From a virus: 64,000 nt of DNA. Every line of letters starts with the position of its first letter. Within the stretch, counting starts at the first letter, position 1. A program made the translations under genes and the position numbers. The stretch lies in the UHGV virus genome UHGV-0142425; one strand, given 5' to 3'. This document shows, piece after piece, positions 26,162-37,320 of the stretch. Below the pieces are notes generated by a model that saw only the letters and a program-made list of their open reading frames with translations, was not told where the DNA came from and ran no database searches.

Positions 26162-26579
26162 TTAACACTCAGATAATGGTTTTAAGTAAAGTGTACAGGA
26201 TCGGCTCTGCCTTTACCTGTTTATGGTTCTCGTCATAGAAACGCCAGCGACCGCGCGTGCGTTCTATCTTTTCTTCACCGCGCGATAATGACAGTTGGCA
26301 ACTATCACGATCAAACCCTTTTGCCCGCCAGTAACCACGATTTTTCTCAAGCTCAAGATGAGTGGACACTTTAGCAGCTGAATATCCCATTTTTCACCTC
26401 TGATTGATTGGTGGTGCTAAGTGCGCTACGCGAAATCTGGAACACTAACACTGCCAACTTTTCACAGATTTTACGTAGCGCAACCTTGATCAAATGATCA
26501 AGTGATCACTATTTGACCTGATAAGGTATTGAACTGTATGGATTTACAGGTAAATTGATCATGTTCAATAACCCTTAAG

Positions 26580-33044: not shown

Positions 33045-33425
33045 TCAGGTCTTGGAACCATATAGTTCACGTAGCTTTTCTGCGACTGAAGATACGGCGA
33101 TTTCACCAGTTGCAGCCCCTACGGTAAGGTCTACCAGTTCAGGTGAGTCAAATACCTGCACCCCATTACGGCGTAGGAATAGCAGCGCACTGTTTAGCGC
33201 GGTACGCTTATTGGCATCATTGAATATATGCCCTCTCGCAGTAGCCACCAGGTAGGTTGCGGAGACTTCGAAAAGGTCGGTAATCTCTTCGTACACAACT
33301 CTGGCCTGGACTCTCCCGATAATGGCCTCTGCCCTGCCCGGATCTGACATGCCAGGCAGGCCGCCGTAGCGGTTTATATTCGCATCATGAAGCGCAATAA
33401 GTTCTTCCGGTGATATATGCCTCAT
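33045..33425 (-). CDS. doc: Doc toxin (Fic-fold kinase)
   Basis: 126 aa, [17 protein letters not shown]..., Fic-like motif HIFNDANKR. Confidence 0.95.
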
Positions 33426-33646
33426 TATCGGTTAACCAGTTCCTTGTTGGTGGAGTCCAGGGTGTCAAACAGGGATGCAAATTCAGCATCCAGCGCCGCT
33501 TTTTTGTAGGCTTCGAAAGTAGCCTTGCTGACAATTACTGCTGGCTCACGGCCTCTGCGGGTGATTTCAACCTCTTCCCCGGCTTCAACATTGTTGAGCA
33601 CTTCAGAAAGGTTGCCGCGCGCGGTACGGAAGTTAATGGATTGCAT
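33425..33646 (-). CDS. phd: Phd antitoxin
   Basis: 73 aa from [16 protein letters not shown]; stop overlaps doc start. Confidence 0.9.
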
Positions 33647-33718
33647 AAACACCTCGTGTACTCGTTATGTGTACACAATTATAAACTTCACAGGCATAAA
33701 GCACCAGCACTTTGCAGC

Positions 33719-34108
33719 TTAAATCACCGGACAATCATCAAATTCCCCACTTCGGGCATCATTGATGACATGAGTGATCACACCAAAAACAGCATTACTG
33801 CCCGTGTATCCATCGTCATCCACTGGTAACGCCTCTTTCTTCCCGGTGCTTAAATCCTCCAGGTGCTGGCGCGGATACTTCCGGTATCTCTTTATGCGAT
33901 ATTCACCCTCCATAGCGCACACAAGCAGAGAACCATCAACCGGAGTAAGCGAGGAATCAACCACCAGCAAAGCACCCTGCAATATTCCCTCACGGTGATG
34001 GCTATCAGCTGCCCGCATGAAGTAGGTTGCTGATGGATGCCTGATTAGTTGCTGATCAAGAGAAATTCGGCTTTCAACATAATCCGCCGCAGGAGAAGGG
34101 AAGCCCAT
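33719..34108 (-). CDS. humD: HumD (UmuD'-like SOS mutagenesis protein)
   Basis: 129 aa with UmuD/LexA C-terminal peptidase fold (Ser...Lys); LexA box immediately upstream. Confidence 0.9.
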   Translation of the reverse strand: MGFPSPAADYVESRISLDQQLIRHPSATYFMRAADSHHREGILQGALLVVDSSLTPVDGSLLVCAMEGEYRIKRYRKYPRQHLEDLSTGKKEALPVDDDGYTGSNAVFGVITHVINDARSGEFDDCPVI

Positions 34109-34127
34109 AGCGTTTTCACCTCAATAA

Positions 34128-34147
34128 TACTGTTCATTTATACAGTA
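34128..34147. promoter_or_regulatory. LexA (SOS) box TACTGTTCATTTATACAGTA
   Basis: CTGT-N8-ACAG with AT-rich spacer, in the divergent region between humD and the 193-aa plus-strand gene. Confidence 0.75.
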
Positions 34148-34282
34148 TACATTAAAGAGACACCTTTGGTGCAAACGCGTTACGTACATCAACCACCGCT
34201 GATTATTTTGTGCTCTTTGCTACTATTCATCACCAACGGATCAGCGTAACCTCGTTGCCAATCAGTTAATAAGGAATTAGCT

Positions 34283-34864
34283 ATGCCTAATCGCATTCCT
34301 CTCGATCCTGTATTGCCCAAAAATTTTGACTGCACTCCTAACGAGAAACGCTCTAAAGCTCAGCTGGACGCCTGGTGGGACCATCCCTATGGGGTTACAC
34401 ACCCTGACGGGAAAATTGTTGTTTATTGTCTGAATGGTGGCGCGTGGGACCGTCCATCCGTGCTTGGTTTGGCAAATAACTATGATGAAGCCTGTGAACT
34501 TGCCGAAAGACAGCAGGCTAGATGGGTGAAAACACGGTCACAGCCGACATTCATGTTTTCAAAAGAACCGCCATTTATACTGGCGAGGATGCCGCAGCGA
34601 CCGGATCATCAACAAGAAATTGTTGCTGAATTTTCCTCAAGGGATGAGATGAATCTCTTCTCATTAAAGCAGGAAGAAAGGGAGCGCGTCGAAGTGTCTC
34701 CAACTCTCGACCACAACCGGATGAACCTGGCCCAACTCGCCTGGTACAGCAAAGAATTAGAGATGTCTATTGCCCGACTTGAAAACGAAAAAGCCGCTAT
34801 CCAAGCCCAGCATGAAGTAGTTCTGAACCGGATTAGAGAAATGCAAAACGATAATAGAGGCTAA
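34283..34864 (+). CDS. hypothetical protein with C-terminal coiled coil, divergent from humD (possibly LexA-regulated)
   Basis: 193 aa, RBS AAGGAA, downstream hairpin. Confidence 0.5.
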   Translation: MPNRIPLDPVLPKNFDCTPNEKRSKAQLDAWWDHPYGVTHPDGKIVVYCLNGGAWDRPSVLGLANNYDEACELAERQQARWVKTRSQPTFMFSKEPPFILARMPQRPDHQQEIVAEFSSRDEMNLFSLKQEERERVEVSPTLDHNRMNLAQLAWYSKELEMSIARLENEKAAIQAQHEVVLNRIREMQNDNRG

Positions 34865-34890
34865 ATCGAGGTAGAAAACACATTGTTTAA

Positions 34891-34907
34891 GGCCACTAAT
34901 TGTGGCC
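34891..34907. terminator. hairpin GGCCAC-TAATT-GTGGCC between convergent genes
   Basis: 6-bp stem, weak T-run. Confidence 0.35.
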
Positions 34908-34924
34908 TCAAAGGGGAGAGATGC

Positions 34925-35479
34925 TTATTGGCTATGGCTAAAAATCAAATGAGACACTTCATGTGGTTGTAGCTCGTCAAGATCCGGGGCCACAAAACCT
35001 TTTCCGAAAGACTTCACAAGTAATTCACCAGCCGCATCATTGTCACCTATTACACGAAAGTCATACGGCAGCATCGCAAGTTGACGGCGTAATCCTGCGG
35101 AGAAAGTCGAACCTAACAGCGCCCACGAATTGCCGCCCGCGTTGTGTACAGCTGCGCTCTTAAAAATAGACTCAGTTATCCATATTGGGCCATCTTTTAA
35201 AGGAAGATAGGTTCCCCAAAGTAACTGTTTGCCATGTGATCGCGTGAAATACCGAGCCATCTTCGGATTGCTATGCTGCTTAGGAGCACCTGGTCTATAT
35301 GTCTGATACCCAGCCAACATCCCATCAAATCTGTATAGAGGGAATGTAACTACTCCTTCACTTTCATCGATCCACTGTCTATATGGGTGTATATCATGGC
35401 GGTAGTTACGAGTTAGCAAATGAGCTTCCAGCTTTCCAAATTTTGTCATAATTCCGTTCTTCCTGGCTTTTAGCTGCAA
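34925..35479 (-). CDS. Toprim-like domain protein
   Basis: 184 aa; IWITESIF (conserved Glu) and RVIGDNDAAG (DxD) resemble the primase/topoisomerase Toprim motifs. Confidence 0.4.
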   Translation of the reverse strand: MQLKARKNGIMTKFGKLEAHLLTRNYRHDIHPYRQWIDESEGVVTFPLYRFDGMLAGYQTYRPGAPKQHSNPKMARYFTRSHGKQLLWGTYLPLKDGPIWITESIFKSAAVHNAGGNSWALLGSTFSAGLRRQLAMLPYDFRVIGDNDAAGELLVKSFGKGFVAPDLDELQPHEVSHLIFSHSQ

Positions 35480-35809: not shown

Positions 35810-36097
35810 TCAGAGATCAGCTTTATGCAGAATTTTATCCACCAGCGATGTGATTTTTTCTGCCAGGTCATCATTACTTACCCAATCCTGGCGGGCAGCC
35901 AGAACGGGCGACAAAGTTAATATTAACTCTCGCCGTAATGATGCGTTCCGTGGTGCTAGTGGTGGTTTAAGCCCCTCGCTCCCTTGTATTTCTGGGGTAT
36001 GCGGCTGATAGCCATTAATCATCCTTTTTTTCTCCATTTTCGGTGGGCGCGGACGCGGGAGAATCATGATTCCTTTCTCTTCCTGCATACTGGGCAT
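35810..36097 (-). CDS. small hypothetical protein
   Basis: 95 aa ORF. Confidence 0.3.
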   Translation of the reverse strand: MPSMQEEKGIMILPRPRPPKMEKKRMINGYQPHTPEIQGSEGLKPPLAPRNASLRRELILTLSPVLAARQDWVSNDDLAEKITSLVDKILHKADL

Positions 36098-36372
36098 GTG
36101 TTCTCTGTGAAATATGGGAAACTATTATCCAGCTCATCTACCCACTGTTTATGGTCGAAGCAGAAAAATATCTCCCACGGCATTCCATATTCTTCCATCC
36201 ATAGGCGGATCTGCATTTCTATTGGAATCGGCGGTATTGCAGACACCATATCAACAGGATAACAGTTCAGACGACGTTCCAGTTCTTCTACTCTCTTCTG
36301 GAGATGAAATATCCGATCCAGATGCACACGCCGCTCCCGTGCCATTTTAAAATAAAGCTCGCCGGTCATCAT
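36064..36372 (-). CDS. small coiled-coil protein with C-terminal W..DELD.SFPYF..CP.CR motif (paralog A)
   Basis: 102 aa; paralogous to the adjacent upstream gene. Confidence 0.45.
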   Translation of the reverse strand: MMTGELYFKMARERRVHLDRIFHLQKRVEELERRLNCYPVDMVSAIPPIPIEMQIRLWMEEYGMPWEIFFCFDHKQWVDELDNSFPYFTENTCPVCRKRKES

Positions 36373-36656
36373 TAACTCCTACATTCAGGGCAAGAGTTCC
36401 CTTCCGCAAAATAGGGGAAACTGCTATCAAGCTCATCACACCATCTGCGATGGTCGTAGCACCAAAACGCCTCCCACGGTGCACGGAAATACTTCATCCA
36501 CCAGGACACTCGATCAGGTATATCTGCTGGTGGCAGCTCTTCTGGCAATAATTTGCCTGATAATTCCCTTTCCGCCCGCGCCAGCATTCCTTTTAGACTC
36601 GCATTCTCTTTTTCAAGAATCTCTATGCGCGCCTGTAACTCAGCTTTCGTTGGCAT
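36372..36656 (-). CDS. small coiled-coil protein with C-terminal W..DELD.SFPYF..CP.CR motif (paralog B)
   Basis: Track ORF 36372..36737 begins at a TTG; likely ATG at about 36656 (MPTKAEL); same C-terminal motif as paralog A. Confidence 0.45.
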   Translation of the reverse strand: MPTKAELQARIEILEKENASLKGMLARAERELSGKLLPEELPPADIPDRVSWWMKYFRAPWEAFWCYDHRRWCDELDSSFPYFAEGNSCPECRS

Positions 36657-37320
36657 GGTCCGCCTCATGCTTTTCAGCCACCAGCGGCAATAAAGCCCTG
36701 GCCATCTTATGAACCAATAGTGCATCAATAATGCCAAGCGTATGCCCCGGCTTAATGTTTAATGCCGCCTCAAGGTGACACCTTTCCAAGCCACTTTTCT
36801 CGGCTTGTTTATGATGATCTGGCGTAATAACGTCGCCCAAAACACGGCTAATTCTTTCTCGTAATTGCTGGGTGCCAGCACACTTGATCGCTGTATCGTG
36901 GAGACGGTTAACCAGTTCGCGATAAACATGCGGCTTAATGCGGATACGTCCACCGGTGACGCCCTTTCCTGGCGCTGACACCGAACTATCCGGAATATCC
37001 GGATAGTTGCCAGCCTCGTAAGCTACCCGCAGCCAGTGCATGAATGTTTCAGTGGACACACAACCACAGTCCACATCGATTTTTCCGCGTTGCTGTTCCA
37101 GCCACTGCTCAAAATTCAATCTACACGTATTACTTTCATGTTGCTCTTTTTGTCTCAAGGCCAGTACCTGTTGGGCCAGTTCCAGAACGATACCGGGTGA
37201 CGCTAACCTCTCAAATTCCAATAAATAGTTTGTGTCAGGATGACAAGTAGCCTCGCCTGCAAAAAATACCAATTGCTGTAAGTATGCTGTCGTTAGAGTA
37301 GTCATTTCTTTTTGCGCCAT
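36640..37320 (-). CDS. hypothetical protein
   Basis: 226 aa ORF. Confidence 0.4.
   Translation of the reverse strand: MAQKEMTTLTTAYLQQLVFFAGEATCHPDTNYLLEFERLASPGIVLELAQQVLALRQKEQHESNTCRLNFEQWLEQQRGKIDVDCGCVSTETFMHWLRVAYEAGNYPDIPDSSVSAPGKGVTGGRIRIKPHVYRELVNRLHDTAIKCAGTQQLRERISRVLGDVITPDHHKQAEKSGLERCHLEAALNIKPGHTLGIIDALLVHKMARALLPLVAEKHEADHANES

Follow-up and report, generated by a model that had tools for sequence, protein, structure and literature searches.

The LexA box between humD and lxr in a P1-like phage-plasmid is assigned by comparison of relatives to humD

Introduction

The SOS box of gammaproteobacteria is a 16-mer palindrome, CTGT-N8-ACAG, with an AT-rich spacer, and it usually lies inside the longer sequence TACTGT-N8-ACAGTA. 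The LexA/RecA* mechanism that acts through such sites is established knowledge. At the chromosomal umuDC genes of E. coli the box overlaps the -10 region of the promoter, and in the divergent E. coli pair uvrA/ssb a single SOS box is shared by the two genes, whose regulated promoters have been mapped experimentally. The system closest to the one described here is that of phage P1. Its annotation, credited to Lobocka et al. (2004), includes a LexA site between lxr and humD, and P1 HumD is reported to complement UmuD' in SOS mutagenesis, a result of McLenigan in 1999 to which both the P1 record and PMC4713147 refer.

In the P1 record (AF234172) the 20-mer at 87545..87564 is labelled 'LexA binding site in the regulatory region of lxr and humD', and the product of lxr is given as 'LexA regulated function'. 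The record of phage P7 labels the box 'regulation of humD expression' only, and the lxr ortholog there is called Upf94.2. Elsewhere, humD has been described as a LexA-regulated SOS gene (PMC9603915), and lxr has been listed under 'LexA-regulated functions' in a study in which CRISPRi showed both lxr and humD to be non-essential (PMC10695390). In PMC4713147, the P1 genome paper is cited for the coi LexA site, and qPCR primers for humD and hot serve thermal induction of the lytic cycle only. No direct test of lxr regulation was found in the literature searched.

Here we examine the corresponding locus in a viral genome, UHGV-0142425; the whole stretch of 64,000 nucleotides that was analysed is referred to as the window. 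The original prediction, made from these letters, was that a near-consensus SOS box lies in the divergent region between humD and a 193-aa gene, that both genes may therefore be SOS-induced, and that the 193-aa gene is thereby linked to the host DNA-damage response. The box and the proposed SOS link of the 193-aa gene were already known, having been part of the P1 annotation since 2004, since AF234172 annotates the identical 20-mer for both lxr and humD. The new element is a comparison among relatives that asks to which of the two genes the box belongs. Its outcome favours, with moderate confidence, a reading in which the box is the LexA operator of humD, inherited with a umuD-type gene, and lxr is likely to be under a LexA-independent promoter of its own.

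Results

The window carries the P1 humD-lxr locus

Megablast against phage records gave 95-98% identity between the region and P1, P7, SJ46, JL22 and other P1-like elements. The region is also 98% identical to E. coli phage-plasmids of about 95 kb, such as NZ_CP067234, and is matched by 1431 plasmid records. Because of these identities to P1-like phages and phage-plasmids, the window is identified by its sequence as a P1-like phage-plasmid, in reverse orientation relative to the P1 map. The locus contains the following features:

33045..33652, minus strand: phd-doc addiction module, directly downstream of humD (ORFs, P1 annotation)
33045-33425, minus strand: doc (ORF)
33425-33652, minus strand: phd (ORF)
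33719..34108, minus strand: humD, encoding a 129-aa pre-truncated UmuD' homolog with the S24 peptidase fold (PF00717, phrog_811, P1 annotation)
34128..34147, no strand: predicted LexA operator (SOS box) TACTGTTCATTTATACAGTA (matrix score, identity to P1, conservation, invariant core)
34283..34864, plus strand: lxr, the P1 'LexA regulated function', 193 aa (ortholog of P1 lxr, phrog_6164, AF2 model)

Window 33055-34817, which spans doc, phd, humD and the greater part of lxr, is 97% identical to P1 in nucleotide sequence. The LexA site of P1 (AF234172 87545..87564) and that of the window are the same 20-mer, with the same flanking genes at the same distances (19 nt and 135 nt), and the 193-aa gene is the ortholog of P1 lxr in a conserved position. 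The two sequences differ only in trivial ways, by one substitution located one base outside the box (GTATACATT in the window, GTACACATT in P1) and in the length of Lxr, which has 193 aa in the window and 190 aa in P1. They also differ 3' of lxr, where P1 has hot, whereas the window is without it and carries a convergent toprim/primase-like gene instead. This gene, an ORF of 184 aa (34925-35479, minus strand), matches phrog_849 'DNA primase', and related plasmids annotate it as 'toprim domain-containing protein'; between it and lxr there is a terminator-like hairpin (34886-34912). On the other side of the locus, phd-doc of P1 has its own promoter, Pphd, according to the P1 annotation.

Two adjacent, paralogous small ORFs on the minus strand, 36064-36372 and 36372-36737 (102 and 121 aa), were also noted. 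They share the C-terminal motif W..F.C.DH..W.DELD.SFPYF.E...CP.CR, which looks cysteine-rich and zinc-binding.

The box is a near-consensus LexA site

The box, TACTGTTCATTTATACAGTA at window 34128-34147, is an exact TACTGT-N8-ACAGTA with the spacer TCATTTAT, so that a near-consensus SOS box between humD and the 193-aa gene, as originally proposed, is borne out. The distances given for it, about 20 bp to the humD start and about 135 bp to the 193-aa gene, also hold. The gap to the ATG of humD (33719-34108, minus strand) is 19 nt and that to the 193-aa ORF (34283-34864, plus strand) is 135 nt. A LexA weight matrix scan, the check that had been suggested, was carried out with a matrix of 29 E. 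coli sites, and its scores are approximate. On this matrix the box reaches 24.2 bits, which places it among the top five of the 29 training sites. The maxima of 50 shuffled windows scored with the same matrix were 12.5 +/- 2.0 bits, the highest being 17.5. The exact sequence TACTGT-N8-ACAGTA is expected by chance about 0.004 times per 64 kb (64000/4^12).

Searches that tolerate mismatches gave a different picture. With up to 2 mismatches to the consensus, 1 site was found in the window against 1.16 expected, and the bare CTGT-N8-ACAG was found 3 times against 0.75 expected; neither search discriminates. That such searches do not exceed chance is what would be seen if the box were a fortuitous palindrome, or a relic unused by LexA, with neither gene under SOS control. 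We give this explanation almost no credence, however, since the score lies far above every shuffle, the core is invariant while the spacer varies, and the box is placed just as at chromosomal umuDC. Moreover, the box keeps a fixed position in all of the humD loci that could be scored, across diverged lineages (see below).

Only one other site in the window, AACTGTATGGATTTACAGGT at 26532-26551, rises above the shuffle range. It scores 17.9 bits, lies between cra/cre and coi, and exactly matches the LexA site annotated in P1 (AF234172 46..65) that overlaps P2coi beside lox. This P2coi site is thus a second LexA site of the same element, present in P1 and in the window alike. It differs from the humD-lxr site in being weaker and in controlling the antirepressor Coi, hence prophage induction and not a repair function; it is presumed to be the SOS input to prophage induction.

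The box accompanies humD with or without lxr

We sampled 80 humD loci from IMG/VR, 79 of which could be scored. A box of at least 17.5 bits lies 18-19 nt 5' of the humD ATG in every one of them (79/79), comprising 37 loci with a divergent lxr and 42 without. Three named relatives without lxr in this position behave in the same way. RCS47 and D6 have hot upstream of humD, with both genes pointing the same way, and phage Cyrano lacks both hot and lxr beside humD. All three keep a box of 25-26 bits at 16-19 nt from the humD ATG, and their homology to the window stops about 10-15 bp past the box.

Thirteen variants of the box were recovered. None of the 8 positions of the CTGT/ACAG core varies among them, as against 10 of the 12 remaining positions (Fisher p = 3.6e-4). 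Because the core is invariant while the spacer varies across relatives, the pattern of substitution marks the box as being under selection.

The box is found at lxr only where humD is present

Could a single LexA dimer on this box act as a bidirectional operator that represses both humD and lxr, placing the two genes together in the SOS regulon? The labels in the P1 record, 'regulatory region of lxr and humD' and 'LexA regulated function', say as much, and the arrangement is a stable one. Indeed, of 56 lxr loci, 52 have lxr back-to-back with humD and the box at 124-136 nt from the lxr start codon. The uvrA/ssb pair offers a precedent, in that both it and lxr/humD are back-to-back genes with a single intergenic LexA box; for lxr this would call for a promoter with a long leader overlapping the box. 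Against a shared operator stand the 42 humD loci that have the box without lxr, and the P7 annotation, which assigns the site to humD only. Loci that retain both genes cannot settle the matter within the P1 lineage because their intergenic regions are near-identical, with divergence starting inside lxr.

Loci in which a member of the lxr family occurs away from humD are more informative. We collected 63 such loci, which include 45 genome loci and 12 further loci from plasmids, phage-plasmids and metagenomes, and no humD homolog was found nearby at any of them. A LexA box of the Gamma/Beta type was found upstream at 0 of the 63. In the 45 genome loci checked, the Alpha-type motif (GTTC-N7-GTTC or its complement) was likewise absent; for the alphaproteobacterial homologs the search reached 400 bp upstream. 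Full-length Lxr orthologs are among the loci concerned: L058, with 68% identity, and L125/L126, with 58%, lack both a box within 500 bp and a neighbouring humD. An 18-bit box in a Serratia locus (L081) was dismissed, because it falls within an unrelated ORF, 2.3 kb downstream of the locus's lxr homolog.

The full-length ortholog in L058 (3001-3570 of IMGVR_UViG_2880329822_000001, a viral contig of 101 kb) constitutes a natural 'lxr without the operator' variant. The small genes upstream of it are on the opposite strand and are without assigned function.

Since the box is absent from 63/63 lxr-family loci lacking humD, SOS control is not a trait of the lxr family. The box is present at humD with or without lxr, and absent at lxr without humD; by this comparison of relatives it is a conserved, selected feature of humD and not of lxr. 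The distribution also sets the pair apart from uvrA/ssb, in that the lxr family has no independent LexA association. On these grounds we regard a shared operator as unlikely, though still a serious contender.

The name 'LexA regulated function' itself comes only from adjacency to the humD operator. Given that adjacency, and the lack of a LexA association elsewhere in the family, the name is not evidence of function. Annotations and gene tables continue to repeat the label (PMC10695390, for example).

Candidate promoters on both strands around the box

A scan of 33600-35000 for strict sigma-70 consensus promoters, on both strands, gave none. We therefore turned to a looser scorer, which allows spacers of 15-19 nt and an extended -10; its background, taken from random 271-nt segments of the window, had best scores of 6.7 +/- 2.0 and a 90th percentile of 9.2. 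The candidates are:

34144..34149, minus strand: candidate humD -10, TATACT, covering the first 4 nt of the box (looser scorer)
34169..34174, minus strand: candidate humD -35, TTGCAC, at a suboptimal spacing of 19 nt (looser scorer)
34218..34226, plus strand: candidate lxr extended -10, TGcTACTAT, with a -35-like CTGATT at 34199 (score 7.8, within background)

The best candidate on the humD strand, TTGCAC-19-TATACT, scores 8.8, within the background, and its -10 overlaps the box. TATACT is the one element past the box that RCS47, D6 and Cyrano have in common, the upstream sequence being otherwise unrelated. In RCS47 the alignment can be read as placing a TTCACA, at 18-nt spacing, in the position equivalent to the humD -35 candidate. 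A box overlapping the -10 would correspond to the arrangement at umuDC.

On the lxr strand, the extended -10 candidate (score 7.8) is located 74 bp downstream of the box, and a promoter there would not be occluded by LexA because of this distance. Plus-strand candidates that do overlap the box, as a shared operator would need, can be drawn (TTCACC-18-TATACA and ATAATA-18-TACATT), but their scores of 4.7-5.0 are below the mean of random sequence. Again unlike uvrA/ssb, lxr thus has no evident promoter over the box. Since none of the candidates exceeds the random-segment background, none is significant alone, and the promoter geometry suggested for humD and lxr is drawn from weak matches.

The P1 record also contains a 'predicted sigma 70 promoter PhumD' at 87080..87106 (approximately window 34586-34612, minus strand), which falls within lxr at a distance of about 480 bp upstream of humD. 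This prediction looks doubtful because that sequence is missing from RCS47, D6 and Cyrano, all of which retain humD and the box; a promoter overlapping the box seems more plausible.

The proposal that both genes may be SOS-induced can now be divided. Its humD half is supported by the box at 79/79 loci, and, judged by its predicted LexA operator, humD is very probably SOS-controlled. Its lxr half gains no support from the comparison, the box being found at 0/63 loci without humD. A link between the 193-aa gene and the DNA-damage response is accordingly unsupported, as the best candidate promoter of lxr is also 74 bp downstream of the box.

Expression of lxr and humD during P1vir infection

The TruSeq RNA v2 kit is one that we take to be unstranded. 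It was the library kit of a published RNA-seq study of P1vir, which followed lytic infection and not SOS induction of a lysogen (PMC8201110). In the wild-type host (Table S1 of that study), the log FC values at 10 and 30 min were 5.9 and 10.4 for lxr, 3.8 and 6.8 for humD, and 6.3 and 9.6 for hot. Of all P1 genes, humD (with lxr, at P1 coordinates 86837-87973) thus gives one of the lowest signals, and lxr resembles the late genes (PMC8201110). The expression of lxr and humD differs about 12-fold at 30 min of infection in these unstranded data, which speaks against one operator governing both genes. Because the kit is unstranded and the infection lytic, the result is only suggestive that lxr and humD are not co-regulated under these conditions.

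The rise of lxr from 5.9 to 10.4 between 10 and 30 min, as for late genes, raises the question of whether lxr is a late, Lpa-dependent lytic gene whose nearness to a LexA box is irrelevant. However, the '-22' element of P1 late promoters (ATGTGACTT or AAGTTACTT) could not be found upstream of lxr, the best match being 6/9 with no -10 at the right spacing. In P1, moreover, antisense read-through from LPhot/hot could contribute to the signal of an unstranded library, and the window itself is without hot. We therefore consider late control of lxr very improbable.

HumD resembles a processed UmuD and its operator that of umuDC

HumD has the S24 fold of the LexA/UmuD type, with matches to PF00717 at 5.7e-9 and to UmuD' (1umu) at 2.4e-23. 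In alignments, residues 2-116 of HumD correspond to 25-136 in full-length UmuD (8gmt_B), and residue 2 corresponds to residue 1 of UmuD' (1umu). Since residue 2 matches residue 25 of UmuD, HumD is, by alignment, synthesised from the UmuD cleavage site onwards (the Gly25 equivalent), that is, in the already-cleaved form. As such a protein needs no RecA*-mediated processing, LexA repression is probably the sole SOS checkpoint for HumD.

The likeness to umuDC extends to the operator. In E. coli, chromosomal umuD has the box TACTGTATATAAAAACAGTA, whose end is separated by 19 nt from the annotated ATG and which aligns with the humD box; both are near-consensus TACTGT-N8-ACAGTA sites that precede a umuD-type gene at this distance from its start codon. 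The humD locus differs from umuDC in encoding the processed UmuD' form, in having no umuC partner in the element, and in the sequence upstream of the box, which is unrelated. Because the spacing between box and ATG is equal and the boxes align at umuD, the simplest reading is that the operator arrived together with the umuD-type gene.

These comparisons suggest a model in which, in the undamaged host, a LexA dimer would sit on the box, covering the likeliest -10 and the transcription start of humD and so keeping the gene off. On DNA damage, RecA* would trigger the self-cleavage of LexA, and humD would be transcribed. The protein, made in the UmuD' form with its start at the equivalent of UmuD Gly25, would skip the second RecA*-dependent processing checkpoint and could join host UmuC directly to give a translesion polymerase of the Pol V type. 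The near-consensus operator would be explained by this bypass of the second checkpoint by pre-cleaved HumD. As for lxr, it would be a back-to-back neighbour of humD in one P1-like sub-lineage, most likely transcribed from a separate promoter within the 135 nt that lie between the box and the lxr start codon, with no direct LexA repression.

E. coli and Salmonella commonly harbour P1-like phage-plasmids, which bring along a ready-made UmuD', very probably under tight LexA control. The relevance is to damage-induced mutagenesis in lysogens, which has been known since 1999-2004, and the practical consequence is small.

Lxr combines a widespread domain with a P1-specific tail

Lxr matches phrog_6164 over its full length, a family that PHROG places in the category of unknown function. 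It consists of a conserved N-terminal domain (residues ~1-125) and a C-terminal coiled coil (~149-192) that is specific to the P1 lineage. The AF2 model (mean pLDDT 84.7) contains two beta-beta-beta-alpha units, the first with strands 36-64 and helix 67-85 and the second with strands 89-117 and helix 120-133, followed by the long helix 149-192, which is limited to P1-like proteins.

This distribution admits a variant of the shared operator, namely that the P1 lineage alone both added the coiled-coil tail to Lxr and placed lxr under the SOS operator of humD. If so, a constitutive plasmid-maintenance or accessory factor would have become damage-inducible, and the sharing of the operator would date from a recent regulatory capture, not from an ancestral state. 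We regard such a capture as rather improbable and continue to favour an operator belonging to humD, with lxr transcribed independently of LexA.

Sequence searches with Lxr gave nothing significant in Pfam, NCBIfam or PDB, and Foldseek searches with the model found no match with E <= 0.001 in PDB or BFVD. A DNA-binding domain built on a three-stranded sheet, of the AP2/ERF or integrase type, was considered for Lxr. The best PDB match, 1gcc (AtERF1, AP2/ERF domain; E = 0.4, prob 0.82, target TM 0.60), and the BFVD matches of about 50 residues to phage HNH homing-endonuclease modules (E = 0.04-0.5) are not significant. Most Lxr homologs carry the NCBI label 'DNA-binding protein'. We take it as a lead, and not a finding, that the family probably binds DNA through the two beta-beta-beta-alpha modules of the model.

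Residues 1 to ~125 (window 34283-34660) occur on their own as proteins of about 133 aa with 50-68% identity, in Enterobacterales, Pseudomonas, Burkholderiales, Xanthomonas, Rhizobiales and Sphingomonadales. Members of this Lxr-N family (loci L065-L126) show the motifs WWDHPYG, CLNGGAWDR and QRPD, and are carried by plasmids, ICEs and phage-plasmids of Alpha-, Beta- and Gammaproteobacteria. As a widespread and uncharacterised plasmid/ICE protein, the N-terminal domain may merit a study of its own. The genomic contexts are mobile elements throughout. In Pseudomonas plasmids, Lxr-N forms a tight unit with a 67-aa gene and a resolvase, beside RepA_C and Fic/VbhA. The homolog in Klebsiella adjoins a HEPN/Toprim gene; the element that carries it is large and codes for proteins resembling gp32, RecA and Pol III alpha. 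Further copies are found within blocks of small unannotated genes, a MazE/PIN pair among them.
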